NCBI GenBank assembly: GCA_963658575.1
Contig: CAVKQB010000005.1
Span: forward strand, 179 to 64,178
DNA length: 64,000 nucleotides
DNA from: Leyella stercorea
GTDB taxonomy: Bacteria > Bacteroidota > Bacteroidia > Bacteroidales > Paludibacteraceae
Reading direction: 5' to 3'
The position numbers were made by a program, and so were the translations under genes. The notes beneath the pieces were generated by a model. It worked only from the letters and a program-made list of their open reading frames with translations, had not been told where the DNA came from and did no database searches. Below are positions 14,528 through 58,032 of this stretch, in pieces (position 1 is the first letter of the stretch; every line of letters begins with the position of its first letter).

Positions 14528-14544
14528 TACGTTTCCTCCCCTTA

Positions 14545-15897
14545 TTATAAGTATTTTTCTATAACCTGTTCCATCTCATCCTTTAGACCGCGTTTGCGAT
14601 TCAGAAGTGCTTTTTGTTTCTGTAATTCAAGCAGTGCTTGAATCAAGTCAAAATCTTGACCATCCGCAGGACAAACGGATTTCAACAATTCGGTTTCTTT
14701 TTGCAATTTTTCCGTTAAGTTTTTCATGTCCAATTCTTTATTATAAACATTATTGTAAATTTCCGAAACGGTTTGGTAGTTCAATAATTCTCTACCCTTT
14801 TTACTTGACATCGCCAAATCACGCCTCCAAATCACTTGAATGGCAATAAGTTCTTGATTACTTATCAACTCGACACTGGAATGCGTTTGCTGAATGGCGT
14901 ATTGAGCCATCAATAACTGTTTAAGCAATCGTTCCCGATATTCGTGCGTGTAATTTCCTTGGTTGTGTCCATCTTCTGTAACAGCCTTTTGCCCGTTACG
15001 GCGTGTCTGCATACGATTATTTGACACATTACGCTCCTCAAACATACTCTGCCGCAAATCCAATAATGGCTTTAACCATTCCTGTCCCCTTTCGACCAAA
15101 GCCGTTAATGATTTATCCTCGTTCACTACCGTACATGTCCAACAGCCAAAGCGACTTTGTCCACATGATCCATGGCTCTTGTCTGTAACCATAGTCGGAC
15201 ACTCATAATCATCTGCACTTGCATCTAAATAGATTTGGAATAATTTAGAATTATCCGCACCCCACGGCGAAGTCATTGCATTTATGATATACCAAACTTC
15301 TTCCAGCATCAAATCTTTAATCGGTGCGTAAACAAATGTATTGTAATGATGGGGATGTTTGGAAAGCCGTTTTCCTCTGATTTCGTGTTTTTTGATAGAC
15401 CTTGCCCTTGTTGCACTCTCTGCGCTCCGTGTACCAATTAAAATAATGGCCTCTCCATTGGCCGTTACTTGTTCAACAATAAAACGGGAAGTCGGTTTTA
15501 TTTTCATCTTATCGGTACACCAACGAAACGTATTGTTTGGTACGGGATAGCCTCTGCCAATAACATTAACCCAAAAACTATCATCCAAACAAGGAATAGT
15601 CATATGCACCGTTACAGGCATATTCTGCTGTACCGCCGCACCTTCAATTTTTTTCAACACATCCTTCACATATCCCTGAATAACAGGATTTTCAACAAGT
15701 GTGTCGTTACAGACGACATGTATTTCTCGTTTACGCATCTCCGAAGGGATTTCGCTTACTGCGAGCCAAACCAATTGTAACAAGGCTGTAGAATCCTTGC
15801 CTCCGCTAAACCCAACAATCCAAGGTCGCCAATTATCATCAATCAAGTATTGATCTTTTATTTCTGAAATAATATAACTTATTCGTGTCATAAGCAT
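14545..15897 (-). CDS. dndC: DNA phosphorothioation sulfurtransferase DndC (PAPS-reductase/PP-loop fold)
   Basis: 450 aa with the PP-loop IVGFSGGKDSTALLQL and a Cys-rich segment (CPTM...SCGQSRFGCWTC) typical of the DndC Fe-S site. Confidence 0.85.
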   Translation of the reverse strand: MLMTRISYIISEIKDQYLIDDNWRPWIVGFSGGKDSTALLQLVWLAVSEIPSEMRKREIHVVCNDTLVENPVIQGYVKDVLKKIEGAAVQQNMPVTVHMTIPCLDDSFWVNVIGRGYPVPNNTFRWCTDKMKIKPTSRFIVEQVTANGEAIILIGTRSAESATRARSIKKHEIRGKRLSKHPHHYNTFVYAPIKDLMLEEVWYIINAMTSPWGADNSKLFQIYLDASADDYECPTMVTDKSHGSCGQSRFGCWTCTVVNEDKSLTALVERGQEWLKPLLDLRQSMFEERNVSNNRMQTRRNGQKAVTEDGHNQGNYTHEYRERLLKQLLMAQYAIQQTHSSVELISNQELIAIQVIWRRDLAMSSKKGRELLNYQTVSEIYNNVYNKELDMKNLTEKLQKETELLKSVCPADGQDFDLIQALLELQKQKALLNRKRGLKDEMEQVIEKYL

Positions 15898-15921: not shown

Positions 15922-16126
15922 CAACAAAAAAGGCATTCACTATTTTGTTCGTTACTTATTTAAGAAAGAAAGGTTCCGCCAAGAACCGCCGACGATAAAT
16001 AAGTACAAAATAGTTCATGCCACAATAGCGTGAACCTTTGCATGCTTATTCTCTCGTCATAAAACTTGGCGGATTTATCTTTCTGAGAATAAGAGCGTAA
16101 AGCCCAAATTATGAATATGTTAGTTT
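15922..16126 (-). ncRNA. candidate structured 5' leader / cassette-junction element, copy A (paralog of 46019-46217)
   Basis: The reverse complement aligns colinearly with the region upstream of the Type III mod gene. This includes a 20/21-identical block GCTTTACGCTCTTATTCTCA (16103-16084) and two helices with compensatory changes. See findings. Confidence 0.45.
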
Positions 16127-44897: not shown

Positions 44898-45989
44898 ATG
44901 GCAGCACACGATACAAATATCGACCTAAACGAGTACATGCGCCAAACCGAGCCGCAAAAAAACGACAAGGTAAAAGCATGGCAGGTAGCCATCGGCCTAC
45001 AAGCCGTCGATGGTTTGACCACGTCCGACTATTTGCTATCGACCGCCAAAAGACACATCGACGGCGACCTATCCATTGCCGAAGTGCAGGATTTGATTGG
45101 GCAATACTACACAACACAAGAAGGGCGCGCCCTCAACGAGGCAAAAAGAACCGAAGAGGCCGACAAAGTGGCGGCAAACATCACCGAAATACTCGGACAA
45201 AACACATTCACTTTTTCTCCAGCAGGATTTGCGGCAATTCACCGGCGGCTTTTCACGGGCATACTGCACCACGCAGGGCAATACCGCACCTACAACATCA
45301 CAAAACAAGAGTGGGTTTTGCGTGGCGACAGCGTTATCTACACCGACTACAGCATGATAGCCGACACCCTTGCCTTCGATTTCGAGCAAGAAAATCCATC
45401 GGCCTATACGCAGATGGACATGCCAACACTGATTCACCACATTTGCAAGTTCATTGCTGGCATTTGGCAGATACACCCATTCGAAGAGGGCAACACGCGC
45501 ACAACGGCCATTTTTACCATCAAATACCTGCGGAGTCTGGGGTTGAACGTGGACAATTCCGCCTTTTCCGAACACTCATGGTATTTCCGGAACGCGCTGG
45601 TACGCGCCAACTACCACAATTACCAAAAAGGCATTGCCGACACAAACGAATTTCTCGAACTCTTCTTCAGAAACCTACTGCTCGGAGAGCATAACAGCCT
45701 GAAAAACAGGTATATGCTCGTCGGTGCAACATGGCAACACCAGCAAAAAGTACCGGCAAAAGTACCGAGAAAAAGTACCGAGAAAAGTACCGAGAAAAGT
45801 ACCGAGAAAAGTACCGAGAAAATTTTGGCGCTCATGAAGCGCAAGCCCAGCATCACCATCAAGGAACTGTGCGCCGCCCTGCCTATGTCTGACAAAGGTG
45901 TGCGCAAAAACATAAACAAACTGAAAGAACAAGGCCGTTTGCGCCGCATTGGCCCCGACAAAGGCGGCTCGTGGCAAGTAACCGGCTGA
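44898..45989 (+). CDS. Fic/DOC-family protein with C-terminal winged-helix domain
   Basis: 363 aa with the Fic motif HPFEEGNTRTTAIF, a (STEK)4 linker repeat, and a C-terminal HTH-like region (ITIKELCAALPMSDKGVRKNINKLKEQGRLRRIG). Confidence 0.85.
   Translation: MAAHDTNIDLNEYMRQTEPQKNDKVKAWQVAIGLQAVDGLTTSDYLLSTAKRHIDGDLSIAEVQDLIGQYYTTQEGRALNEAKRTEEADKVAANITEILGQNTFTFSPAGFAAIHRRLFTGILHHAGQYRTYNITKQEWVLRGDSVIYTDYSMIADTLAFDFEQENPSAYTQMDMPTLIHHICKFIAGIWQIHPFEEGNTRTTAIFTIKYLRSLGLNVDNSAFSEHSWYFRNALVRANYHNYQKGIADTNEFLELFFRNLLLGEHNSLKNRYMLVGATWQHQQKVPAKVPRKSTEKSTEKSTEKSTEKILALMKRKPSITIKELCAALPMSDKGVRKNINKLKEQGRLRRIGPDKGGSWQVTG
45746..45823 (+). repeat. tandem AAAGTACCG(R)(S)A repeats inside the Fic gene
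   Basis: Four perfect 12-nt units AGTACCGAGAAA (45774-45821) are preceded by two degenerate units. A 13-nt unit shifts the reading frame of the repeat, from KVP to STE. Confidence 0.9.
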
Positions 45990-46018
45990 CAAAACCGAAA
46001 AAAACGACAAAAAATAGT

Positions 46019-46217
46019 TAACTAACATAACCACAGAGCTTTACGCTCTTATTCTCACAAATCGGAATCTAGACAATTTCAATGCGTATGGGAATAAGTG
46101 AGCGAAGGTTCATGCTTTCGGGCGTGAACTGTTTCGTGCTTATTTACGCATAGGGAAGTCTAGACCCTCGATTTGAATAAGCAAACAAAACGAGCAGTTC
46201 ATAGCCTTTTTTGTTGC
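46019..46217 (+). ncRNA. candidate structured 5' leader / cassette-junction element, copy B (paralog of 15922-16126)
   Basis: Colinear with the reverse complement of the dndC upstream region. Helices are conserved with compensatory substitutions. It ends about 40 nt before the mod ATG. Confidence 0.45.
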
Positions 46218-46255
46218 TGTCAGGATAAGGGCGATAGGCGAAAAAGCAATATGCC

Positions 46256-47908
46256 ATGCCCACACTCAATTGGATTGGAAAAGAGAAAGTCGTTACTCAC
46301 GCCGACCATGTCCCCTACCGTGTATTAGACCACAAGTACGACTATGGCGAGCCGACGGATAGCCCTGCGGCGGGCGAGGACGGAGGCAATATGATTATTC
46401 ACGGCGACAATCTCGAAGCCCTGAAAGCCCTGCTGCCAAAGTACGAGAACAAGGTGGACTGCATCTACATCGACCCGCCGTACAACACGGGCAACGAGGG
46501 TTGGGTGTACAACGACAATGTGAACGACCCGCATATTCGCAAGTGGTTGGGCGAGGTGGTAGGCAAAGAAGCCGAAGACCTCACCCGCCACGACAAGTGG
46601 CTATGCATGATGTACCCCCGTTTGGTGCTGCTGCAAAAACTCCTTTCTCCCACAGGGGCTATCTTTATCTCCATAGACGACAACGAACAAGCCAACCTCA
46701 AACTCATCTGCGACGAGATTTTCGGCGCAGGGAACTTTGTGGCTTGTTACTTGTGGAATAAAACATCCACGCCACCAGCTTTATCCAAGAAGGTTAGACG
46801 AACGCACGAATATATTCTTTGTTACAATAAAAACAATGATGGTTCTCAAAAATATATAGGATTGGTCAACGATGGAGGCGATGCTCCAATTCTAAACGAA
46901 ATAAACAAAGAGATTACCCTTTCTTTTCCGGCAAATTATGTTGTTACAACCTTACCTGATGGGATTTACAATGCTGGTGATAGGGAACGGGTATGTTTAC
47001 TTAATGATGTTGTTGTTTCTAATGGAATAATAAAATCTCCCTTTCAGTTGAAAGGGCATTTTCGATGGACACAAAGTACGCTTGACTATGAAATCAGTCA
47101 AAAGTGTCGCTTGATAATCAAGAGTAATAAATTTGCAATAAGGTATTGCCGACAAGAAGACAGAACTGTAGCACCTCCTAACTTTATCACAGAGCGTTTT
47201 TATTTAGGAACGGCTATTGATAAAGAAACGAATGTAGATACCAATGATAAGGCGGGTGAAGAATTGAAATGTATTTTTGGTTCTAAGGTTTTTGAGTTCC
47301 CTAAACCACACTCACTAATTGAATACCTTATAGGCTTCTTAGGCAATCCCAACGCCCTTATCCTCGACTCCTTTGCGGGTAGCGGCACAACCGCCCACGC
47401 TGTCTTGAATCTCAACAAGCAGGACGGGGGACACCGCCGCTTTATCTTGGTCGAGATGTGCGACTATGCCGAGACCATTACCGCCGAGCGGGTGCGGCGT
47501 GTCATTAGTGGCTACGGCGAGGGCAGCAAAGCCGTGGAGGGGACGGGCGGCACATTCTCCTACTACGAACTGGGCGAGACCCTGTTTCATGGCGAAAACC
47601 TAAACGAAAACGTCGGCACCGAAAAACTGCGCGAATACATCTGGTACTGCGAGACACGCACGCCCTACGCCAAAAACGGAGCGGCAAGCGCAAATGCCTA
47701 TCATTTGGGCAATTACAATAATGTAGGCTATTACTTCTACTACGAACGGGACAAAACGACCACATTGGACAAAGCGTTTTTGAACACCATTGCCGCACGC
47801 GCCGACCAATACATCGTCTATGCCGACAATTGCCTGTTGAGCGTCGAATTTATGCAAGCCAACCATATCATTTTCAAAAAGATACCGCGCGACATACGCA
47901 GATTTTAA
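46256..47908 (+). CDS. mod: Type III restriction-modification methyltransferase (Mod), N6-adenine
   Basis: 550 aa. Motif IV is CIYIDPPYNTGNEGW and motif I is LDSFAGSGTTAHAV. A central AT-rich target-recognition region lies between them. A Res gene follows. Confidence 0.9.
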   Translation: MPTLNWIGKEKVVTHADHVPYRVLDHKYDYGEPTDSPAAGEDGGNMIIHGDNLEALKALLPKYENKVDCIYIDPPYNTGNEGWVYNDNVNDPHIRKWLGEVVGKEAEDLTRHDKWLCMMYPRLVLLQKLLSPTGAIFISIDDNEQANLKLICDEIFGAGNFVACYLWNKTSTPPALSKKVRRTHEYILCYNKNNDGSQKYIGLVNDGGDAPILNEINKEITLSFPANYVVTTLPDGIYNAGDRERVCLLNDVVVSNGIIKSPFQLKGHFRWTQSTLDYEISQKCRLIIKSNKFAIRYCRQEDRTVAPPNFITERFYLGTAIDKETNVDTNDKAGEELKCIFGSKVFEFPKPHSLIEYLIGFLGNPNALILDSFAGSGTTAHAVLNLNKQDGGHRRFILVEMCDYAETITAERVRRVISGYGEGSKAVEGTGGTFSYYELGETLFHGENLNENVGTEKLREYIWYCETRTPYAKNGAASANAYHLGNYNNVGYYFYYERDKTTTLDKAFLNTIAARADQYIVYADNCLLSVEFMQANHIIFKKIPRDIRRF

Positions 47909-47919
47909 CCCGTAGAGCC

Positions 47920-50565
47920 ATGGAACTGAAACCCTATCAGCAACAAATAATAGACGACCTGCGCCGTTTCATGCTTTGTGTGCAGGAGAAGAAAAACATC
48001 GGCGATGCGTTCAACGCCTTTTGGGTTGGTCATCTGCGCACGCCGCTCACTCCATTCCCTGGCGAGGCGGTGGAGCCGTACAAAAACAACGTGAAAAATG
48101 CGCCTCACGTTTGCATAAAAGTGCCCACGGGCGGCGGCAAAACCTTTATCGCCTCGGCAGCGTTGAAGACCATTTTCGACGCATTTGATGCGACGCGTTT
48201 CCGTGCCGTGGTTTGGCTGGTTCCGTCCATCACCATTTTGGAGCAAACGCTGCGCAACTTGCGCAACCCCAGCCATCCGTACAGGCAGCGCATCAATGCC
48301 GATTTTGCCAATCGTGTCGAGGTTTTCGGCAAAGATCAAGCCTTGCAAGGCGCGGGTTTTTCGCTACCAGTAGCCAAAGAGAACCTGTGCATACTTGTGA
48401 TGAGTTTCGACAGTCTGCGCGCTAAAAAGAAAGAAGACCGCAAAGTGTATCAGGAAAATGGCAACCTGCAATCGTTCGAAACACTTGTGAGCAAAGACGA
48501 AAACGGCGACCCCGAATTGCAGTTGATGAAGGTGTTGCAAGCCATGAATCCCGTAGTGGTAGTGGACGAAAGCCACAATGCCGAAAGCGATTTGAGCGTG
48601 GAAATGCTGCAAAACCTGAATCCGAGTTTTGTGCTCGACCTCACGGCCACACCACGCCGGCACAGCAACATCATCAGTTTCACCGATGCCTACGAGTTGA
48701 AGAGAGAAAGCATGGTGAAGTTGCCCGTAATCGTCTACAACCACCAAAGCCGCAACGATGTGATTTCGTCGGCGTTGGAACTGCAGCGCCGCTTGGAAAA
48801 CGAGGCCAACAAGGCGCAAGCAGACGGAGGCCGCTACATTCGCCCCATCGTGCTGTTTCAGGCGCAACCACGCACCGACGATGAGAACGTTACCTTCGAA
48901 AAAATCAAACGGACACTGCTCGAACTGAAAATTCCCGAAAACCAAATCCGTATCAAAACCGCCGACCGCAACGAGATAAAAGACGTGGATTTGCTTTCGC
49001 CCGACTGCGAAGTGCGTTACATCATCACAGTGAACGCCCTGAAAGAGGGTTGGGATTGTCCGTTTGCCTACATTTTGGCATCGTTGGCCGACAAGAGTTC
49101 GCCGGTAGATGTGGAACAGATTTTAGGCCGTGTGCTACGCATGCCTTGGGTGCGGAGCAGCAAAAATGCCATGCTCAATATGAGTTATGTGCTGACCGCC
49201 TCGCCCAAATTTCTCGATACGCTCGACAACATCGTCAAAGGGTTGAATCGTGCCGGATTTAGCGATAAGGATTACAAAATTGCGGAACCCGAAAAGCCGA
49301 AAGAAGCGACCGCCGCAGAACCGGCGCAAACCATGGGCTCTCTGTTCGCGCCTCGAGGTGCCGCGCCAGCAACAGACAAACCAGACACCGACGAATTTGA
49401 TGCGGGGAAAATTCATTTTTCGCTGCAGCCGACAGAGGACGATACGAAATCGGCAACCATCAACAGCGATGTAGACAAAATAGAAGAACAAGCGAAAGCC
49501 GAAGCAGAAAAAGCAGCACAGCACGAAAAACAGGACAACAACGGAACCGATAACGTTCCGACAGCATTGGAAAATCAAGTGAAAAAGTACAAAATGAAGG
49601 AGATTTTCAGCGAATCGGCCAAATCGCTGAAACTGCCGCAATTTATGAGCAATAACGGGCAAAAACTTACCAATTGCCTATTCGTGGACTTGCCACAAAC
49701 GGCCATTTTTGAATCCGAGGAACTGTTGCGCGACTTCAAATTGGGCAACGAAAACTCGGAAATAAACTTCGACAGCGTCGAAACATCGATGTATCGCGTA
49801 GATTTGGACGAAACGAACGACTACAAGCCAACCTATCTGAAAGTAGAGGGCGGCGTTCACGAAAAAATTGTGGATTACCTACTCGACCCCAAACAAAAAG
49901 GGAAGCGCGTCGAAAACTGCACGTTTCGTCTGAAAAACATCATCGGCAAAATGTATCCTATCCCCGACAAGGAAATAGAACTTTACATTTCCCGTGTATT
50001 AGAGCGGTTTTCCGACGAGCAATTCTCCGACCTGCTGAATCACGAATACTCGTATGCCGATAAAATCAAAGCAAAAATCAAGCAGTTGAGCGAGGCTTAT
50101 AAGGAACGGCAATTTTTCGATATGGTCGATAGAGACCTGATTTTTACAGCAGAAACCTATCGTTTGCCCGCGGAAATTATTCCTACAAAAGTCATTTCGG
50201 GCTTACCAAAATCGCTCTACGACAAGGAAGGAGACATTGACGATTTCGAAAGAGAGGTGATTAACGATGTAGCCAATCTCGAAAATGTGGAATTTTGGAC
50301 ACGCAACCTTGAGCGCGGCAAAGGATTTCACATAAACGGTTTCATCAACCATTATCCCGATTTTATCATCAAAACGAAAAAGGGGAAAATCGTTCTGCTC
50401 GAGACCAAAGGCGACCATTTGGATGCCGAAAAAAGAATAAAACTCGGAAATTTGTGGGCAACCAAGGCTGGGAACGATTACAAATACTGCTTGGTCTATA
50501 ATATCCGCCAAGTGGACGGTGCTTACACCAAAGACCGTTTCATCGACTTGCTCCGAAATTGGTGA
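47920..50565 (+). CDS. res: Type III restriction enzyme Res subunit (SF2 helicase-nuclease)
   Basis: 881 aa from MELKPYQQQIIDDL. Motif I is VPTGGGKTFIA and motif II is VVVDESHNA. The start was moved from 47830 to 47920. Confidence 0.9.
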   Translation: MELKPYQQQIIDDLRRFMLCVQEKKNIGDAFNAFWVGHLRTPLTPFPGEAVEPYKNNVKNAPHVCIKVPTGGGKTFIASAALKTIFDAFDATRFRAVVWLVPSITILEQTLRNLRNPSHPYRQRINADFANRVEVFGKDQALQGAGFSLPVAKENLCILVMSFDSLRAKKKEDRKVYQENGNLQSFETLVSKDENGDPELQLMKVLQAMNPVVVVDESHNAESDLSVEMLQNLNPSFVLDLTATPRRHSNIISFTDAYELKRESMVKLPVIVYNHQSRNDVISSALELQRRLENEANKAQADGGRYIRPIVLFQAQPRTDDENVTFEKIKRTLLELKIPENQIRIKTADRNEIKDVDLLSPDCEVRYIITVNALKEGWDCPFAYILASLADKSSPVDVEQILGRVLRMPWVRSSKNAMLNMSYVLTASPKFLDTLDNIVKGLNRAGFSDKDYKIAEPEKPKEATAAEPAQTMGSLFAPRGAAPATDKPDTDEFDAGKIHFSLQPTEDDTKSATINSDVDKIEEQAKAEAEKAAQHEKQDNNGTDNVPTALENQVKKYKMKEIFSESAKSLKLPQFMSNNGQKLTNCLFVDLPQTAIFESEELLRDFKLGNENSEINFDSVETSMYRVDLDETNDYKPTYLKVEGGVHEKIVDYLLDPKQKGKRVENCTFRLKNIIGKMYPIPDKEIELYISRVLERFSDEQFSDLLNHEYSYADKIKAKIKQLSEAYKERQFFDMVDRDLIFTAETYRLPAEIIPTKVISGLPKSLYDKEGDIDDFEREVINDVANLENVEFWTRNLERGKGFHINGFINHYPDFIIKTKKGKIVLLETKGDHLDAEKRIKLGNLWATKAGNDYKYCLVYNIRQVDGAYTKDRFIDLLRNW

Positions 50566-50695
50566 GAACAGAACAACGTCAGATAGCACGAAATGTGCAA
50601 CAAAACCAAAAAGCGCAGCCGTTGTAGGTTGCGCTTTGGTTGTTGGGGACGAACGGTTTTTACATCAATTTCACAACTTTTGCGGCGAAAAAACG

Positions 50696-50729
50696 CTCTA
50701 TTCTCCGCAAATTTGCGGAGAATAGAGCC
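50696..50729. terminator. perfect 34-nt palindrome, probable bidirectional terminator between convergent res and the giant gene
   Basis: GCTCTATTCTCCGCAAA|TTTGCGGAGAATAGAGC is a 17+17 perfect palindrome. It is flanked by an A-run on the left (a T-run for the minus-strand transcript) and by AAATTTT on the right. Confidence 0.7.
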
Positions 50730-50748: not shown

Positions 50749-53700
50749 CTATTTCACCAGCACTTTTTGGTGGCCGATGGCGGCAGATTGCAGCCGGACA
50801 TATACCAGCGCGATGCCCGACGGGGCTGTGAGCGTGCAGACCGATGTGCCTACGGTGGGTGCGGCACTTGTCAGTAGCCGCCCGACAAGGTCGTAGACGC
50901 GTATCTCGGCAATGTCGCTCGAAGCCACCACCACGATGCTTTCCTGCGCGTTGGAGAAGGCGGTTATCTGCTCTACTCCATCTGTATCGATGGCTGGTAT
51001 GGCGTTGTCGGTCGGCGTGTCGTTGGGATTATCGGGAGTATCGGCCTCGCCTTGCAGATAGTAGCGTATCTCGTGGTTGGCCGGCGTAGCGATGCGGACA
51101 CAGATGTCGTTGTAGAGGCGCGTTTTTTCGCCCGTTTTGCTGTCGCAGAGGTAGCACTCTTCGCTCCAGTTGGTGCTGGTGTGGAAGTAGAGCGTCAGGC
51201 TGTCGGAGCGGAAATCGCTGTGCAGCACAAAGCCGAGCGGCACGGTTTTCATCTCCGGTCGCAAGTCGGCGGCTAGCGGCTGGTTGTCGGCCAGCGTGTA
51301 GATGTTCACGGGCGTGGTGAGTGTGTTGTCGTTCACGCCGTACTCCACACCAGAGGAGATTAAGCGTACATCTTCGTTGCTGTCGTAGCCGTTGGAGGTG
51401 AAATCCATCAGTGCCAACTGCGTTTCGCCGCGCTGGTATTGCCAATCGCCGTCTTTATCTTGTCCGCCGGAGAGTGCGGTTATCTTCATCAGTTCGGGGC
51501 GCAGGGTGCGACCTTGAGCGCGTGCGTGAGCCGAAGCCTGCCTTGTCGTGGTGCGGTTGCGCGGCACGAGGCTCAGGTGTTCGGGTTTGAGGCTTACCTC
51601 CACCGTGCGGATATCTCCCGTAACATCTTGGCTCGCCACCATAGCCGACTGCATCGGGCGGAGGAACAGGTCGGTGGTCGTTACATCGCGCTTGATGGTT
51701 TCCCACTTGCCATCGACCTCCACTTGATAAGAGCCAATGTTGAGTACGTTTTGGTTGTCGTCGAGGAATTTCGCCATATTGATGTACGCCATGGTCGGGT
51801 TGCCAAAGAGGAAACCTTGTTGCCCTGCGATGGGCGTGGCAGAGCCGTCGGTCTTTTGGTTGAGGATAGTCAGCGTGATGTGCATCGCCCCGTCGCTTGC
51901 TGGCACAAAACCGAGTCGGTATGCCGAGTCGCGGTCGAGAGTTTCCACCATGCCATTCGGTTGGAGCGTAACGGAGTCGTAGTATTCGTACTCGGTATCG
52001 GGTTTGGGTAGTTTGATTGTGAGCGACTGCGTGTCGTCGGTCGGTCCGAAGCCCGCCACGGCAAATCCCTGTCCGGGTTCGAGTTTCTTGCCCATCGTAT
52101 TCGACTCGATGAAGTCGGCCGTCGTGCTGTAGCGATAGTCCCACCCTGTGGGAGTTACCACGGTTACATTTTGGTTGTAGTACGAAGCCCATACGGCGTA
52201 GGCGGCATACTTGGTGCGTTCGCCTTGGAAGCCGTTCACCTCGAAGTCGGCACTGCTCTCGGTCGAGGCACCTGCGCTGTATTTGCCCGTGTGCGGCACA
52301 AATAGGTCGCCCGAATAGGTTGCTTGCATAGGCGATGCCACGGTGTACCAATCGTTGGCGGGCAGGGTAGCATTGACATACGCTTCGTTGTAGGCGAGAT
52401 ACTCTTGTCCGATGATTTTCGCGCCCGAACGGAACTGCACTTTTTTGCAGACATTGGTGTGATAGTGTACATCTTCGGGGTAGAGGATATACGGGTCGCA
52501 GTCGGGCTGAATGGTCGGGTACTTCATCTCGTCGAGGAAGTCGGCGTTATGCTCCGGCAGGATTACCATCGTGTTTTTGAGCGGCGCGTAGCCGTGGTCG
52601 AGCACTTTGCCGTCCACTATGCCGCGCCAGTTGCGGTCGTCACCCCAGAGGTAGAGGCTGTCGCCCGTCATGGCGGTCGGTGTCCAGATGACGGTATCTG
52701 GCACAACCACCACATTGATGTACGAGTAGCCCAGCAGACAGCCGCTGTCGCCGTCGTCCATTTCGGCGGTGGTGCCGCGCACTTTCATCTGCAGGCGGAG
52801 TGTGTATTCGTAGCCAGCGCGCATCGGGTGCGAGTTCACAACCCAGAGCCCGGGGTGCCCCTCTTTCCAGCCCGATTGGTTGTTGTGCACCCATTTCATC
52901 GAATCCACATGGTCTTGGTCGATGTAGTGGAAGACGATGCTGTCGCCCACGTCGTAGTAATTGGCCGAAGCACCGTCGTAGCCGTTGAACTTGTCTTGCG
53001 AGAAGTGCATCGAGAAGCCCGGAGTTCCAATCAGTGGGCTGACCACGGGGTCGGTGCTGAGCACCACTTGGGTACTGTCGTAGCAGATGGCCACATTTTT
53101 TCCTATCTCCTTAATCGGCACATAGAATTGGTTGTGTGCGTTGTGTTCCGAGATGCGCACGCGGGGCACATCGTTGCCCGTGATGTCGGCGGTCGCCTTG
53201 TTGCTCAGGTTCAGCACATAGTCGCTCTTCACGCTGAAAACCATGATGTAGGTCGGGTTGGCGCATTCGTTCAGAATGTAGGTATTGCCGTTGTACACAG
53301 TTTTGGCCGTACCGGCAATCGGGTATATCCAGTAGCGGCAGGTATCCTCGGAGCGCATGTATATCTGTTGGCGTTCCTGCCAGAGAACGAGTTTTTTCTG
53401 TTCCACGAGGGTTTTGATTATCTCGTAGTGGCTTTGGTCGTCCCAATACTCTGTGTTGGCGTTCACCTTGCTCAAGTCGGTGGCAAGGTAGTTCGATTTT
53501 TGGTTTATGGTGTCGCGGCGCAGGTCGGCTATGGCGGCATCTACTTGCTCGCGGGTGTAGCCGTATGCCGCCTCGAATGCAGCGTTGCATTGTGTTTCAC
53601 GCTCCGTCGTCATCTCTTGGTAGGCGACGTCCTCGTCGGGGTCGAGGTAGGAGTAGTACCACGCGTCGTCGCTATCTATGCCCAAAAGCCAGTCGCCCTT

Positions 53701-56700
53701 GGCGTATGCCTGCAGATGAATGAGTTTGTCGCCATCGGTGAGCGTGTCGGTTACGAGAATCTCCAGCGGATAGAGGCCGTTGGCGCACTGTCCGGCGGCG
53801 GGATAGGTTTCGCCGTTGAATACGAATGCCGTCTTCTCGAATACGGGAAGTTTGGTACGCATGGCGCAGGCGGCTTCGCTCAGTTCGTCTTTCGCGTAGG
53901 CGGTGCGCACTTCGTAATTCTTCTTGGCAGAGAGTGGGCTTTGGTGTACCAATTGCGCCAGATAGATTATCCAGCGTTCCTTGCCCGACTCGTAGTTGCG
54001 AATGTAGCGCAGCAGCGTGGTATCGCTATCGTATTGCGCAATCGAGTCCAACAGGGCTTTGGCCGAAACGGCAGTTTCCGCTTCCGTGGGCGTGAAATCT
54101 TTTGCCGGAGTAACCAGATAGCCGTAGTCGGCCGATACGGACTTGCCGTCTTGATAGTAGTTGGTTTTTATGGCCTTGCCTTTCGACACGTCGTAGATGT
54201 CGTAGAAGAGTTGTGTGTTGTATTTATCCACGCCAGTGAATTGCGTGTAATCCGCTTTGATGATGGTTACCATCTGGTCGCCTTTGGCGTTGCGGCTGCA
54301 GTCGGTGCTGGCTTGGAACGATTCGAGTGGCGTAGGCGAAGCGTAGAGGTAGATGTCGTCCAACAGGAAGTCGTTGCCGTCGTTGTCGGAGGCGTAGTTC
54401 ATCACGCTGATGCGCGTCTCGTCGTAGTTTTGTGCGCCTACCAGCGGGAAGTTCACCTGCTGCCAATTGACGCTGCCGTCGAGCGGACCCGTGCAGAATG
54501 CGCCTATCGACTCCCATTCGCCGCCCGCAACGCGCCCTTCGATGTCGAATTGCAGAATCGGCTGTGTCTTGTTGTTGTAGTTGGCGTTGGCCACCCAAGC
54601 GGCGCAGTAGAGTTGCTGTCCCGAGCAGATGGTGGCGTTGGTGGAGAGGGTTACGACCTTGCCAGGCAACTGCGCGCCGTCCACATAGAGGCAGTAGCCG
54701 TTTTCGGCTCCGCCGTGTTGCGCAATGTTTTTGCCCCAATAGGCGTATTGTCCCTGTTCGCTCGGACAATTCGTGCCTATCGCATTCACTATGGCATATT
54801 CGCCGTAGAACGGGAATGGAATTTGGTCGCCGCTTCCACTCATGCTTCGTGTGCCACGGAACGACTGTCCTTGCGTTACCGAATAGGGATAGCAGTAGCC
54901 AAAACTGCTCTCTTGGGCACCGAGCGGTTTGGGATAGATGACGCAGTTGGTGGTGCCGGGTTTGTCGTAGTCGAAGTTCTGCTCGGCAAGCAGCACATAG
55001 TTGCGCTCGATGTCCTCTTTGGTGATGAGCGCAGTGGTCGATGGGCCGTAGTCCGAGGCGACGGCGAAATGTATCGTCCAGCGGGCAAGCAGGAGCGTAT
55101 CGGCCAGACTGATGCCGTTGTATTTGTCCCATATCGTCTTGCCAAACGAGCCGCCGTAGGTGCCGTTGGCAGCAGGCTCGATGCGGTATTCATAGACTAC
55201 CGAATCTGGTATTGCCCGCTGTACGGTGCGGAAATCGTAGCGCGAGCCAAGCGTGTTGCGCGCTTGTGGATAATCGGTTCCGTCCGCCACTTGCATGGCT
55301 GGAGTCTGCAACACGCCGTTTTTGTAGAAGCGCACCTCTACCGAGTCCAAGTTCGCGCTCATCGAGAGGCGCAACAGGGTGTCGCGCGGCGTGCCGAGGG
55401 TGTTTATCTTCACGGGAACGAAGTAGCAGAGGTCGCTCGGGCGGTCCATCGTGGCATTGTCGTTGTAGGGATAGGCCGAGGCGTATTTGGTGCGGAGAAT
55501 GACATTCTTGCCGACAGGCGCAGTGATGGTGTAATCCTCGAAATAGTTGCCACTCTTGGCGGTGAATTTCGAGAGCGAGTCGGCCATTTGGCTTGCGGGG
55601 CGCAGGTGGAATATCTGGCGGTAACTGATAGTCGGCTCTTGCACCTGTTTGGCAGAGGCGAGGTCTATCTTGTAGTCCGTGTAGTTGCTCATATCCACGG
55701 CGATATCGCGCTCCGCGGGCAGGTCGTTGCCGGTGGTGTCCCAGCCAAGCACGACGGGAATGACCATGTTCGACAGGGCGGCTTCTTGCTCGTTCAGCGA
55801 GCCAGCCTCGTCGAGCCCAGCCCACATCCAGCCTCTGCCCTTCTCCATGGCGTAGTACAAGCCCTGCGAGGTGGACGGCGTGCTGTTGATGGAGTCGTAG
55901 AGCCAAAGGCTCACGCCGTTGTCGTTGATGTTTTTGGCGGGCGGCCGTTGGTAGAAATCGCTTTGAGTCTTGTAAGTGCCGTCCTTGCGGCTGCGGTAGA
56001 AGCGCGGGTCTGCGCCTGTGTTGTAGTCGTACCAGCGTTGCCAGCCGAAGAAGTTACGCTCGCGGGGACGCAGTTCCACCTTTTCGCCAGGGTAATAGTA
56101 GATGGTGGTCTCGTGGGTATGCACGCTCTGCCGTCCCTCGTCATCGACGGTGGTGTAGCCCCAGCCGCCTTGTGGAACAAAATCTATTTCGCCTGCCGAG
56201 GCGTGGTTCAACTGCTCGATGGGAATGACGCGCGTGTAGGTCGTCTTCATCTCTTTGTTTTTGAAATAGTGCAGCAGCACGTTCGAGCGGTTAACGTTCA
56301 GCGGGTTGGCTTCGGCGGTAAGCGTAATGCTCGTGCCGCCTTCGTCGAACTCTTTGTCCGCCGTAATGGTCAGCCAACTGCAAGGGTCTTCCTCCAACTT
56401 GGCAGAGTGTTCCACGCGGTCGAGCAGTTCCTCCGAGCCAGGAGTAAGTTTCTCCCGCCCAAGCTCGATGGCGGCCTTCTCTACGCGCTCTTTGGTGTAG
56501 AGTTTGATGGTGTTCTCCACCACGAGCGAGTCGTAGGTAACCTCCACCGACCCTCCATCGGCGGGGAAAATAATTTGGCTTTGGCTCAGATAAGGCACGA
56601 GTTTCTGCTCGTGGTAGTAGTGGTACGACTCACGGATAATAGGCTGCTTGTAGTAGTACACCTCTTGCCCGTTCTTGGTAATGGCAAAACGCAGCGTATC

Positions 56701-58032
56701 GGTGAAGTCCGCCCAATAGGCACCGTCGGGACGGGAATAGTAGGTGCCTGTTACGTAGTTGAGCGGGCTGCGGCCTTTGGGGAAGAACTGAACGACAAAC
56801 CACTGCATCTTAAACGGGTCGGGGTCGTCGTCCGTACCCCAGTCCAAACTGTCTTTCATCACGCGGTAGTCTATCATCAGACGGGCGGTGTCGCGGTACT
56901 GCATGCCCCACTCTGCCCCGGGTTGGTTGTAGATGCCAGGAGCGGTGATGTCGCTATACCACTTGTAGACGGGCAAACTCTTGCCGCCGTCGTTTATCAA
57001 AGAGCAGGTGTGACCGTAGCCGCGTTTCTGCATCTTACGGAAATCCAGCGTGAGTGTATTTTCGGAGTATAGCCATTCGGTGTCGTAGCCGTCCTGCACG
57101 CCCGCTACGGAGTAGTAGCCCGACCAGATGGTCATCTGCGGGTAGATATAGAGCATGGCGGTGCTGTCTGCCTCTGCCTTGGCACTGTCTGGCTCGTAGG
57201 CGTAGTAGGTGTCCGAGCACCAAGTGGTGGCTATCAGGCTGTCTTGGTCTTCGGCATACGACCACTTCTCGTAGTAGGCGGGGTGAATGGTGGTGGTGCT
57301 GGGGTCGGAGGTGTAAGCCCAGCGGTCGTTTTTCTTGTCGAAATAGAGGTAGTATTCCGTGCCGGCTCCGTCCGACACAAGCGGGTATGCCAAGGTGCGC
57401 AGGTGCGTTTTGTAGTCCAGCACGCGCGTCCATTGGTGGTCGATGGCCGACGAATTTTCGTATGCGTCAACAAGGGTTATCGTTACCGTGCCGTCGGTGC
57501 CGACCTCGGTGCGCACCCATTGACCGGTAGCAAGATTTTGGTAGCGGCGGTAGTTGGTGCCGTCGTTGTCGCCTTGTACCACGCGCCAGAGATTGACGGT
57601 AGAAGCGTCGGTGGGCAATACGGTGGCCGAAGCGGCTATGGTGGTGCCATCAGCACTGATGGTCATATAGACGAATTTCACCTCTTCGCGGTAGTAGTGT
57701 ACGGTCTGCGTGCCGTCCGTCGCCGTGATGGTGTCGGAGTAGTAGAAGAGCGAACGCCCGTAGGCCGTCTTCTTGCCCGTGTATTCTCGCTTCGAAATTT
57801 CTGTGATAGAGGTGCTTACGGGATAACCAAATAGGCAGGTGTCGCCTGCTGCGATGGGATTGCTACCCGAAGCGGAGCGGGTGTTGTCGTCGTAAGTGTC
57901 GATGACCAATCCTGCCATGTTCGCCATGTGCAGATTGCTCCACAAATTGCCGGCCTGCAGGCCTCCTACGGCGATGACCGCCGCTATCGCTATTGCGCCA
58001 CTTACTACACCCAACTGGATACGCTTTTTCAT
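50749..58032 (-). CDS. giant (2427 aa) secreted protein with T9SS C-terminal sorting domain; function unknown
   Basis: N-terminal signal/anchor (MKKRIQLGVVSGAIAIAAVIAVGG). The last ~80 aa (ITAFSNAQESIVVVASSDIAEIRVYDLVGRLL...VYVRLQ...KVLVK) resemble a Por secretion tail. Rich in Tyr, Trp, Asp and Thr, with no obvious internal tandem repeats. Confidence 0.8.
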   Translation of the reverse strand: MKKRIQLGVVSGAIAIAAVIAVGGLQAGNLWSNLHMANMAGLVIDTYDDNTRSASGSNPIAAGDTCLFGYPVSTSITEISKREYTGKKTAYGRSLFYYSDTITATDGTQTVHYYREEVKFVYMTISADGTTIAASATVLPTDASTVNLWRVVQGDNDGTNYRRYQNLATGQWVRTEVGTDGTVTITLVDAYENSSAIDHQWTRVLDYKTHLRTLAYPLVSDGAGTEYYLYFDKKNDRWAYTSDPSTTTIHPAYYEKWSYAEDQDSLIATTWCSDTYYAYEPDSAKAEADSTAMLYIYPQMTIWSGYYSVAGVQDGYDTEWLYSENTLTLDFRKMQKRGYGHTCSLINDGGKSLPVYKWYSDITAPGIYNQPGAEWGMQYRDTARLMIDYRVMKDSLDWGTDDDPDPFKMQWFVVQFFPKGRSPLNYVTGTYYSRPDGAYWADFTDTLRFAITKNGQEVYYYKQPIIRESYHYYHEQKLVPYLSQSQIIFPADGGSVEVTYDSLVVENTIKLYTKERVEKAAIELGREKLTPGSEELLDRVEHSAKLEEDPCSWLTITADKEFDEGGTSITLTAEANPLNVNRSNVLLHYFKNKEMKTTYTRVIPIEQLNHASAGEIDFVPQGGWGYTTVDDEGRQSVHTHETTIYYYPGEKVELRPRERNFFGWQRWYDYNTGADPRFYRSRKDGTYKTQSDFYQRPPAKNINDNGVSLWLYDSINSTPSTSQGLYYAMEKGRGWMWAGLDEAGSLNEQEAALSNMVIPVVLGWDTTGNDLPAERDIAVDMSNYTDYKIDLASAKQVQEPTISYRQIFHLRPASQMADSLSKFTAKSGNYFEDYTITAPVGKNVILRTKYASAYPYNDNATMDRPSDLCYFVPVKINTLGTPRDTLLRLSMSANLDSVEVRFYKNGVLQTPAMQVADGTDYPQARNTLGSRYDFRTVQRAIPDSVVYEYRIEPAANGTYGGSFGKTIWDKYNGISLADTLLLARWTIHFAVASDYGPSTTALITKEDIERNYVLLAEQNFDYDKPGTTNCVIYPKPLGAQESSFGYCYPYSVTQGQSFRGTRSMSGSGDQIPFPFYGEYAIVNAIGTNCPSEQGQYAYWGKNIAQHGGAENGYCLYVDGAQLPGKVVTLSTNATICSGQQLYCAAWVANANYNNKTQPILQFDIEGRVAGGEWESIGAFCTGPLDGSVNWQQVNFPLVGAQNYDETRISVMNYASDNDGNDFLLDDIYLYASPTPLESFQASTDCSRNAKGDQMVTIIKADYTQFTGVDKYNTQLFYDIYDVSKGKAIKTNYYQDGKSVSADYGYLVTPAKDFTPTEAETAVSAKALLDSIAQYDSDTTLLRYIRNYESGKERWIIYLAQLVHQSPLSAKKNYEVRTAYAKDELSEAACAMRTKLPVFEKTAFVFNGETYPAAGQCANGLYPLEILVTDTLTDGDKLIHLQAYAKGDWLLGIDSDDAWYYSYLDPDEDVAYQEMTTERETQCNAAFEAAYGYTREQVDAAIADLRRDTINQKSNYLATDLSKVNANTEYWDDQSHYEIIKTLVEQKKLVLWQERQQIYMRSEDTCRYWIYPIAGTAKTVYNGNTYILNECANPTYIMVFSVKSDYVLNLSNKATADITGNDVPRVRISEHNAHNQFYVPIKEIGKNVAICYDSTQVVLSTDPVVSPLIGTPGFSMHFSQDKFNGYDGASANYYDVGDSIVFHYIDQDHVDSMKWVHNNQSGWKEGHPGLWVVNSHPMRAGYEYTLRLQMKVRGTTAEMDDGDSGCLLGYSYINVVVVPDTVIWTPTAMTGDSLYLWGDDRNWRGIVDGKVLDHGYAPLKNTMVILPEHNADFLDEMKYPTIQPDCDPYILYPEDVHYHTNVCKKVQFRSGAKIIGQEYLAYNEAYVNATLPANDWYTVASPMQATYSGDLFVPHTGKYSAGASTESSADFEVNGFQGERTKYAAYAVWASYYNQNVTVVTPTGWDYRYSTTADFIESNTMGKKLEPGQGFAVAGFGPTDDTQSLTIKLPKPDTEYEYYDSVTLQPNGMVETLDRDSAYRLGFVPASDGAMHITLTILNQKTDGSATPIAGQQGFLFGNPTMAYINMAKFLDDNQNVLNIGSYQVEVDGKWETIKRDVTTTDLFLRPMQSAMVASQDVTGDIRTVEVSLKPEHLSLVPRNRTTTRQASAHARAQGRTLRPELMKITALSGGQDKDGDWQYQRGETQLALMDFTSNGYDSNEDVRLISSGVEYGVNDNTLTTPVNIYTLADNQPLAADLRPEMKTVPLGFVLHSDFRSDSLTLYFHTSTNWSEECYLCDSKTGEKTRLYNDICVRIATPANHEIRYYLQGEADTPDNPNDTPTDNAIPAIDTDGVEQITAFSNAQESIVVVASSDIAEIRVYDLVGRLLTSAAPTVGTSVCTLTAPSGIALVYVRLQSAAIGHQKVLVK

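Follow-up and report, generated by a model that had tools for sequence, protein, structure and literature searches.

Two operons in a 64,000-nucleotide (nt) stretch of the Leyella stercorea genome (GenBank assembly GCA_963658575.1, contig CAVKQB010000005.1, positions 179 to 64,178; the whole of this stretch is referred to below as the window), one encoding a type III restriction-modification system and the other a phosphorothioation-like system, are preceded by two copies of the same leader sequence. The question posed by this locus is whether the shared leader works as an RNA switch in front of both operons, as the original prediction had proposed from four mutually complementary segments (S1 to S4) that would allow two mutually exclusive folds, or whether it is a DNA repeat, a small RNA gene or a constitutive element. 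We put the probability at roughly two in three that each copy is the 5' leader of its operon and forms a predicted cis-acting, four-strand transcription attenuator that is biased towards read-through. The family to which both copies belong probably gates the expression of acquired genes such as restriction and DNA-modification systems, as judged from its predicted structures and its position.

The two copies align over ~185 nt, copy B at 46032-46215 on the forward strand and copy A at 16109-15926 on the reverse strand, and an nhmmer profile of the family returned exactly two matches in the 64-kb window (E = 2e-34 and 7e-32). Direct reading of the sequence places the segments and the outer and apical helices of both copies where they had been proposed to lie. 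In copy B, S1 (CTCTTATTCTC) occupies 46046-46056, S2 (GGGAATAAG) 46090-46098, S3 (TGCTTATTTA) 46137-46146 and S4 (TGAATAAGCA) 46174-46183; the outer helix (TCTAGAC/GTCTAGA) joins 46068-46074 to 46158-46164, and the apical helix joins 46107-46115 to 46122-46130. In copy A, the segments are found at 16095-16085 (S1), 16053-16045 (S2), 16005-15996 (S3) and 15962-15953 (S4), and the apical helix does contain the single C.A mismatch attributed to it. The pair counts also hold: S1:S2 comprises 9 bp and S3:S4 10 bp, with one G.U pair in each.

These segments are parts of longer strands, which can be combined in two ways. Fold I pairs strand 2 with strand 3, the variable regions V1 and V2 with each other (helices P0, P1 and P3) and S1 with S4, whereas Fold II pairs strand 1 with the entire strand 2 and strand 3 with the entire strand 4, while V1 and V2 form small local hairpins. 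The S1:S2 and S3:S4 pairings with which Fold II had been equated are thus real, although they are merely the cores of longer helices; similarly, the S2:S3 pairing within the outer helix that had been ascribed to Fold I is found in the minimum free energy (MFE) structures of both copies, although that description was incomplete, as S1:S4 also pairs there. The two folds use common strands and cannot coexist, as had been claimed.

In copy B, strand 1 (GAGCTTTACGCTCTTATTCTC, 46036-46056) contains S1; in Fold II it is joined to strand 2 to form the anti-antiterminator, and in Fold I it contributes a small hairpin (GAGC/GCTC) and S1:S4. V1 (46057-46089) carries the 5' halves of P0 (46059-46065), P1, which is the outer helix, and P3 (46082-46088). 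Strand 2, or alpha (46090-46115), is composed of S2, GAGCGA and the apical 5' arm AAGGTTCATGC (46105-46115), and its partner is strand 1 (Fold II) or strand 3 (Fold I). After the apical loop of the MFE fold (TTTC, 46116-46119), strand 3, or beta (46120-46146), is composed of the apical 3' arm GGGCGTGAACTG, TTTCGT and S3, and forms the antiterminator with strand 2 or the terminator with strand 4. V2 (46147-46174) carries the 3' halves of P3 (46145-46151, overlapping the last two bases of strand 3), P1 (46158-46164) and P0 (about 46166-46174), and in Fold II it forms a local hairpin (AGGG...CCCT) within the terminator loop. Strand 4, or gamma (46175-46206), consists of GAATAAGC (the S4 core), AAACAAAACGAG and CAGTTCATAGCC and is the 3' strand of the terminator helix. 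In Fold II, therefore, 46036-46056 is paired with 46090-46115 and 46120-46146 with 46175-46206, and a U-tract (TTTTTT, 46207-46212) directly follows the strand 3:strand 4 helix.

The same organization is found on the reverse strand in copy A. Strand 1 (GGGCTTTACGCTCTTATTCTC, 16085-16105) includes S1, and V1 (16054-16084) carries the 5' halves of P0, P1 (TCCGCCAAG) and P3, all of which are unlike those of copy B and are compensated by V2. Strand 2 (16028-16053) reads GAGAATAAG (S2), CATGCA and AAGGTTCACGC; strand 3 (GGCATGAACTATTTTGTACTTATTTA, 15996-16021) includes S3; V2 (15962-15995) carries the 3' halves of P3, P1 (CTTGGCGGA) and P0, with a possible local hairpin GGTTC...GAACC; and strand 4 (AAATAAGTAACGAACAAAATAGTGAATGCC, 15932-15961) pairs with strand 3 as 5 + 10 + 8 bp. 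A U-tract, which the original prediction had recommended looking for, is thus present in copy A as well (TTTTTT, 15926-15931).

Thermodynamic folding of both copies yields the proposed Fold I, extended into one long interrupted hairpin. The MFE values of the two copies are -62.6 and -64.5 kcal/mol, which correspond to z scores of -5.0 and -6.3 relative to dinucleotide shuffles, none of 200 of which folded as well. Enforcing S1:S2 and S3:S4 melts the apical hairpin and yields two long helices, the second of which ends at the U-tract (-55.8 kcal/mol in copy B and -48.9 kcal/mol in copy A). The opposite strand of both copies folds almost equally well, so folding energy alone cannot tell which strand is the relevant one.

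Is this structure peculiar to one genome, or is it shared more broadly? Two independent pattern scans revealed more than 150 homologous leaders in which the same segments are conserved, far beyond what chance would produce. The first scan, of one genome per species, was anchored on S2 and the apical helix and gave 36 loci, 33 of which are true homologues, all from Bacteroidota (Tannerella, Bacteroides, Phocaeicola, Prevotellaceae, Dysgonomonadaceae, Ca. Symbiothrix, a Flavobacterium and a metagenome-assembled genome (MAG) of Crocinitomicaceae). The second, of metagenomes, was anchored on other segments (S1 and S3) and gave at least 120 loci. The named matches belong to Bacteroidota, chiefly Bacteroidales with some Flavobacteriales, and the Bacteroidales that carry the leader inhabit the human and animal gut, the rumen and the termite gut. 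Several genomes harbor two or three copies, including the two in the window and three in each of two MAGs. Partial second copies (E about 4e-12) were also found on two contigs that bear full copies (L078, 1-92, and L136, 5469-5551); these may be decayed or truncated elements.

No RNA family corresponding to these leaders emerged from Rfam 15 or from the literature searched. Rfam 15 gave no match in the whole window at the gathering threshold and none in the more permissive search of 45900-46350 on both strands at E <= 10. Searches of the literature on Bacteroides leaders, attenuators and defence regulation found nothing corresponding, the conserved sequence strings matched only unrelated primers in papers, and the motif is absent from the first 200 of the 408 supplementary files of a human-microbiome structured-RNA catalogue. 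The family is apparently undescribed so far.

Constrained folding of every homologue revealed a common layout: strand 1 (GAGCUUUUAGCUCUUAUUCUC, which holds S1) and V1; strand 2 (GAGAAUAAG-N6-AAGGUUCACGC, that is, S2 and the apical 5' arm) and the loop; strand 3 (GGCGUGAACUGUUCGUGCUUAUUU, the apical 3' arm and S3) and V2; and strand 4 (AAAUAAGC..ACGA.CAGUUUCACGC, S4 and its tail) and the U-tract. After removal of near-duplicates, 127 leaders were aligned with MAFFT (alignment A4), and the family-wide structural statistics given below refer to this set unless another total is stated. RNAalifold applied to the first MAFFT alignment recovered only the core S1:S2/S3:S4 pairs of Fold II and the apical hairpin because the variable helices were misaligned; hence, constrained folds of the individual sequences were mapped to the alignment columns, and alignment-free energies of cognate and non-cognate duplexes were compared.

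Both folds proved to carry compensatory changes, which supports the proposed 1:2/3:4 versus 2:3 attenuator layout rather than one static structure. For Fold I, 90.1% of the cells are standard pairs, compared with 78.4% after partner shuffling and 40-45% when the columns are slid by 1-3 positions, and 887 cells show changes on both sides versus 308 expected from shuffles of this structure-neutral alignment. P0, P1 and P3 have essentially no conserved sequence, and their complementarity is kept: the V1:V2 duplex energy is -28.3 kcal/mol for cognate and -11.4 kcal/mol for non-cognate partners, and the cognate partner ranks in the top 5% for 126 of the 127 leaders.

For Fold II, 88.5% of the cells are paired, compared with 85.4% after shuffling and 41-52% after sliding; 28 pairs are changed on both sides versus 20.3 +/- 1.9 in shuffles, none of 500 of which reached 28, and double-change cells number 249 versus 103.5. 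Of the 12 pairs in the helix adjoining the U-tract, 11 are changed on both sides. The duplex of strand 3 with its cognate strand 4 is on average 4.6 kcal/mol more stable than that with a non-cognate one (-26.4 versus -21.8 kcal/mol; Wilcoxon p = 1e-20, uncorrected for relatedness), and the cognate strand 4 beats partners from other strand 3 sequence classes in 119 leaders. The most telling cases involve three positions that pair with one another: where beta reads GGUGUG, both alpha and gamma read CACACC; where it reads GGCGC, alpha has UUUGCG and gamma GCGCC; and where it reads GAGCCG, gamma has CGGCU, while alpha keeps GGUU via wobble pairing. Moreover, one base of strand 3 without a partner in Fold I covaries with strand 4 (GC 44, AU 25 and GU 23 at columns 127:222), and the conserved GG and CC beside the 3' arm of P1 can pair in Fold II only.

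The distribution of variation between the strands follows the number of their partners. The segments with several partners (S1-S4, alpha and beta) are nearly invariant, while P0, P1 and P3, which have a single partner each, vary freely; S1-S4 and strands 2 and 3 are frozen because each has two or three partners, and a mutation there needs several simultaneous compensations. Frozen switch strands combined with covarying structural helices are the pattern that would be expected of a two-state element and not of a static hairpin.

The 3' end of the leader resembles an intrinsic terminator. At least six T in seven positions follow the helix in 106 of 124 leaders, versus 24% of random windows, at a median of 62 nt after S3 (interquartile range 59-64). 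The helix abuts the U-tract without a gap in 120 of the 127, a figure that is partly circular, since strand 4 was defined as ending at the U-tract, and the 3' domain, when folded by itself, adopts this terminator in 126. The strand 3:strand 4 helix and U-tract thus have the stem and tract that attenuators in general have and are predicted to be an intrinsic terminator; the antiterminator helix shares strand 3 with it, and both helices carry compensatory changes. A simple scan for sigma-70 promoters and short-loop terminators was uninformative here because it does not cover Bacteroidetes promoters and the terminator loop exceeds its limit.

Two further complementarities were observed near the U-tract. 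Strand 4 has an A-rich internal loop (GCAAACAAA) whose complement spans the U-tract and the bases just beyond it (UUUGUUGC), in copy B between 46180-46189 and 46210-46218 and in many homologues as GCAAUCAA with UUGUUUGC, so the antiterminated state can hide the U-tract in a weak hairpin, as in the MFE structure of copy B; this complementarity is absent from the Bacteroides subgroup with helix-turn-helix (HTH) genes. In a subgroup from Bacteroides and Phocaeicola (e.g., L013 of Bacteroides muris NM69_E16B, contig NZ_SRYZ01000026.1, 3212-3391 on the minus strand), strand 4 ends in a sequence (UCCGCC) similar to the 5' arm of P1 (ACCGCCAA), which gives the 3' arm of P1 (UUGGCGG) two possible partners and thereby an extra alternative pairing near the U-tract.

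Another important question is whether these structures are formed by RNA and, if so, from which strand. Read on the strand of the downstream gene, G.U exceeds A.C by about 6:1 in both folds (850:145 in Fold I and 1030:156 in Fold II), which points to RNA transcribed from that strand and argues against a DNA palindrome or an antisense transcript, for which parity or the reverse ratio would be expected. A DNA-level element, such as a repetitive extragenic palindromic (REP) or miniature inverted-repeat transposable element (MITE)-like repeat, an attC-like site or an invertible promoter, would account for a long imperfect palindrome whose opposite strand folds almost equally, which occurs in several copies and which lies at the 5' edge of cassettes low in G+C. 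We consider it most improbable, since the orientation relative to the downstream open reading frame (ORF) is fixed, the positionally conserved U-tract is found on one strand only, and the structure consists of nested covarying helices instead of two conserved terminal inverted repeats. No direct or inverted repeats were found flanking the two cassettes of the window, no recombinase, integrase, transposase or invertase recurs near the leaders, and blastn of the leaders gave no match in a plasmid collection (72,556 records) or a phage collection. On these grounds, assignment to the REP, MITE or attC elements was rejected, as was assignment to the invertible promoters (invertons) of Bacteroidales, given the covariation of the nested helices between copies and the lack of a recurrent invertase.

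The position of the leaders relative to genes is that of 5' leaders. Among 154 full-length matches, a same-strand ORF begins within 350 nt in 139 and within 80 nt in 116. Where the first gene encodes a small HTH protein, its ATG lies ~8 nt past the U-tract that ends the leader, which leaves no room for a separate promoter. A candidate Bacteroidetes -7 box, TTG, directly precedes the (A/G)GC that opens strand 1 in ~65% of the members. Copy B lacks this TTG and may be transcribed from a different promoter or via read-through from the Fic/HTH gene.

Could the sequence instead be a free-standing small RNA gene, for which strand 3:strand 4 is the terminator and the downstream genes are mere neighbors at an insertion hotspot? 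The ~175-nt RNA would then refold after release into the long hairpin and act in trans or as a protein sponge. Several copies per genome, a possible -7 box just upstream, a terminator at the 3' end and variable cargo behind one chromosomal site, next to the gene of a GGGtGRT protein, would suit such a gene; still, we regard it as unlikely, because the orientation is always that of the next ORF and the spacing is tight, HTH genes that begin ~8 nt after the U-tract need read-through, almost all conserved bases are paired in the mature hairpin so that no seed region is available, and the ground state disfavors the very terminator required to make the RNA. Multi-copy, conserved noncoding RNAs that end in an intrinsic terminator, FopS and GibS, have been described in Bacteroidaceae; FopS, which its authors submitted to Rfam, has a single-stranded seed followed by the terminator and targets susC mRNAs in trans (PMC11697453). 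The leaders, which have no Rfam match, are almost fully paired and are fixed upstream of ORFs, belong to a different family.

Some members carry additional conserved sequences outside the leader proper. A conserved motif, AACTAACATA, lies upstream of both window copies (46019-46028 and 16126-16117), and similar TAACATA motifs are found in L037-L040, L048 and L049, about 10-20 nt upstream of strand 1 and specific to that subgroup; in several relatives, a TATAAT-like hexamer follows. From its sequence and location, the AACTAACATA/TAACATA motif may be a candidate non-canonical promoter of the subgroup. Between the U-tract and the ATG, many members of different subgroups (L002, L005, L018, L019, L021, L023, L030, L149 and others) possess a second conserved hairpin (GUUUAAGAGUU-loop-AACUCUUAAA), which ends 2-6 nt before the start codon and is absent from both window copies; a role in translation, or in processing or stability, that is coupled to the leader is conceivable.

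How might the two folds decide between termination and read-through? The emerging strand 1 (S1) would first pair with strand 2 (S2 and the apical 5' arm) as an anti-antiterminator. Strand 3, once transcribed, could displace strand 1 from strand 2, giving the apical helix and S2:S3; P3, P1 and P0 would then zip up between V1 and V2, and S1 would join S4 to complete a hairpin of ~140 nt, Fold I. With the last strand free in this fold, the polymerase would continue into the operon. If strand 1:strand 2 were kept, the strand 3:strand 4 helix would form, ending at the U-tract, and transcription would stop before the start codon (Fold II). The balance would most likely be tipped towards termination by a trans factor, a protein or an RNA, that stabilizes strand 1:strand 2 or blocks V1:V2; refolding that is slower relative to polymerase speed would be an alternative cause.

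Equilibrium folding of successive prefixes of both window copies is consistent with the first of these steps: S1:S2 forms, then the apical hairpin, and S2 switches to S3 once S3 or V2 has emerged, after which the long hairpin persists to the end. In the comparison of the two complete folds, Fold I and Fold II differ by 1.1 kcal/mol in copy B (-57.2 versus -56.1) and by 10.8 kcal/mol in copy A (-59.7 versus -48.9). Since Fold I is the thermodynamic ground state, read-through would be the default. Termination, this default state and the nature of the effector are thus what we infer from predicted structures.

A leader-peptide mechanism of the trp/his type was rejected: a closed ATG ORF of at least 8 codons is present in only 55 of the leaders, with scattered starts, and no conserved short ORF overlaps strand 1 or strand 2.

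Several observations weigh against the attenuator reading. On average, Fold I lies ~7 kcal/mol below Fold II in the family, and Fold II is the lower in only 7 of the 127 leaders; with Fold I the more stable, little termination would be expected at equilibrium unless a factor intervenes, and none was found. For a terminator, the stem is unusually long, with an insert of 30-40 nt inside it, and the bases adjoining the U-tract can pair locally without strand 3 in 68 leaders, so strand 3 is not their sole possible partner. The Fold II covariation is modest in absolute terms because the strands are highly conserved, the shuffle controls behind the covariation statistics ignore phylogeny, and the alignment is MAFFT-based and gappy in the strand 4 region. 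No canonical promoter is recognizable at either window copy, no TTTG lies upstream of copy B, and GAGC, with which strand 1 opens, may belong to the promoter and not to the RNA. Finally, no signal suggests itself from the downstream genes, which have no obvious physiological theme in common.

These genes are diverse indeed. In 62 loci (~40%), the first gene encodes a 70-110-aa Cro/C1-type HTH protein (PF13443, E = 3e-5), and the HTH-linked members mostly precede lipoproteins rather than restriction-modification genes. Defence cargo includes restriction-modification systems of types I, II, IIG and III, phosphorothioation (dnd-like) genes, an EcoRI-like methylase with GmrSD/HNH, DarT with DUF6939, and a STAND nucleoside triphosphatase; a protein with a von Willebrand factor A (vWA) domain also occurs, whose two following genes were left out of the library scan. 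BspA-type leucine-rich repeat and Listeria-Bacteroides-repeat proteins represent surface cargo, and acyltransferases, extracytoplasmic function (ECF) sigma factors and radical S-adenosylmethionine (SAM) enzymes complete the list. The upstream genes are housekeeping genes, and no integrase, regulator or other gene recurs among them beyond local synteny. The original prediction had explained the leader by the danger of prematurely expressed operons that lack DndB or a C protein; this rationale does not extend to the family, in which a small HTH gene follows ~40% of the leaders and genes for surface proteins follow many.

A metabolite effector is unlikely, given the heterogeneous cargo and the absence of an aptamer-like core. 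A small-molecule riboswitch, in which a ligand would bind one of the folds, for instance at the internal loops by P1 or at the strand 1:strand 2 hairpin, would use an identical expression-platform logic, and the conserved unpaired GAAA and GCC and the UU and GG flanking P1 could be cited in its favor. It nevertheless appears highly unlikely to us: the alternative helices account for almost all conserved nucleotides, the would-be aptamer region (V1, V2) is hypervariable, the downstream genes have no common metabolic theme, and Rfam is silent even at E = 10. The leader was for these reasons not assigned to a riboswitch class.

In the window, copy B is followed after 44 nt by a type III mod/res pair (46256-50565, forward strand), in which mod (46256-47908) contains an N6_N4_Mtase domain and res, which extends to 50565, a ResIII domain; the listed ORF of res starts with TTG at 47830, and 47920 is the position of its first ATG. 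Downstream of copy A, at a distance of 29 nt, is a phosphorothioation-like operon on the reverse strand (10843-15897) that consists of just three genes, dndC-like (15897-14545), dndD-like (14527-12413) and a DndE-HerA-like fusion (12426-10843), without dndA or dndB; the last gene joins a DndE domain (PF08870, E = 6e-20) to a HerA/FtsK-like AAA ATPase. Neither operon includes the small HTH gene of the family, and no homologue of that protein is encoded in the window. The G+C content is 37.6% in the copy A cargo, versus 60% in the flanking ispE and 55.7% in rny, and 48.1% in the copy B cargo, versus 58% in the neighboring cmk. As both operons are low in G+C relative to their housekeeping neighbors (56-60%), the leaders sit at the 5' edge of acquired cassettes. 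From its composition, the dnd-like cassette between ispE and rny looks like a recent insertion; contigs with an identical IspE protein have the same gene arrangement and offer no empty-site or alternative-cargo contrast.

The main rival to a regulated attenuator is an element of the same structure that has no sensor, a constitutive tuner or insulator in which kinetic competition between the folds terminates a fixed fraction of transcripts for each cassette. Evolution would set this fraction through the strength of V1:V2 relative to the terminator, and acquired genes would be expressed at a low, insulated level. We found no aptamer-like conserved core, leader peptide or linked regulator, as such an element would have it; the cargo is heterogeneous and, in the window, is acquired DNA of low G+C content; and the folds are separated by very different energies from copy to copy (a family mean of 7 kcal/mol, with 1.1 for copy B and 10.8 for copy A). 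However, a phylum-wide anti-antiterminator layer exceeds the needs of a leaky terminator, the equilibrium prefix folding predicts near-complete read-through, so that useful termination would still need slowed refolding, and GAAA, UUU, GG and CC flanking the loops are conserved beyond pairing needs. We therefore hold the tuner to be possible but rather unlikely.

A more far-reaching version of the attenuator reading, which we offer only tentatively and would not ourselves bet on, is that the leader is a phylum-wide, cargo-agnostic RNA gate for acquired cassettes, in which the invariant four-strand switch takes the decision and V1:V2 serves as the address of the cassette. If so, V1:V2 would either set a cassette-specific threshold or be the target of copy-specific trans-acting RNAs or proteins, and each defence system, surface-protein gene or small HTH regulator could be silenced or released on its own. 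This would add a new control layer over the defence islands and surface genes of gut Bacteroidales, beside invertible promoters and UpxY antitermination.

The logic of the predicted attenuator is that of several known systems, although the leader is a member of none of the pyr, OFF riboswitch or pT181 families. The PyrR-controlled pyr attenuators of Bacillus place an anti-antiterminator, an antiterminator and a terminator in a 5' leader; as here, three nested alternative helices have common strands, the 5'-most helix frees the 3' strand for the terminator, and the antiterminator is favored otherwise. In contrast to them, the leader has no sequence or Rfam relationship to pyr elements, does not precede pyrimidine genes, conserves no PyrR binding loop and possesses an antiterminator longer by ~25 bp of hypervariable helices that have no counterpart in pyr leaders. 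A CCAGAG motif in some P1 arms was dismissed as a PyrR binding loop, because P1 varies between copies and the cargo is unrelated. OFF riboswitch expression platforms likewise combine an exclusive terminator and antiterminator with a deciding 5' helix (the analogue of P1) directly upstream of an ORF, whereas the leader has no conserved aptamer core, encloses a hypervariable region and precedes genes with no theme that would suggest a ligand. In the antisense attenuation of plasmid rep genes (pT181, pIP501/pAMbeta1), four-segment leaders also employ a long-range 'pre-emptor' pairing that blocks the terminator, with sequence-specific, copy-specific segments on small hairpins; unlike these, the leader is chromosomal, with no match among the plasmid records, is not known to have a countertranscript promoter or an antisense RNA, and carries the complementary partner, V2, in cis. 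C proteins regulate restriction-modification systems through DNA operators at promoters. Their control resembles the present case in that a device lies at the 5' end of restriction-modification operons and ~40% of the leaders precede a small HTH protein (PF13443), while the conserved feature here is an RNA switch, and the window operons are without such an HTH gene. The family is set apart by its hypervariable, copy-specific antiterminator extension, its phylum-wide, multi-copy spread and its association with acquired cassettes instead of a metabolic pathway.

To our knowledge, little has been established about how the expression of newly acquired defence systems is timed or limited in Bacteroidota. 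If the switch works as proposed, the leaders would constitute a previously unrecognized class of cis-regulatory RNA with more than 150 sampled members. The family offers a concrete, testable handle, since it is short and modular, both of its states are predictable, and locking mutations can be designed from the alignment. As a natural three-layer RNA switch (anti-antiterminator, antiterminator and terminator), it could also be used in the development of RNA-structure methods, and it is a candidate tunable part for Bacteroides synthetic biology.

Several minor observations concern the surroundings of the leaders. Five loci (L013, L035, L077 and also L059 and L132) occupy one conserved site downstream of the gene of the NifU-like/GGGtGRT protein, where the second and third genes behind the leader and its HTH gene are unrelated from species to species, which suggests a hotspot for cargo exchange behind the leader-HTH module. 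Contigs of the same species as the window come from the MAG assemblies GCA_963632395.1 and GCA_963619205.1, and on L157 (1-1239), also of this species, a neighboring gene encodes a Por_Secre_tail (type IX secretion) sorting domain. In the window itself, a perfect 16-bp hairpin (GCTCTATTCTCCGCAA-ATT-TTGCGGAGAATAGAGC) at 50695-50729 is followed by GTTTTTT on the minus strand and is probably the predicted terminator of an ORF of 2427 aa on that strand (50749-58032). Its stem (GCTCTATTCTC/GAGAATAGAGC) is nearly that of S1/S2 in the leader, with one T fewer, a likeness that may be a coincidence or a relic.

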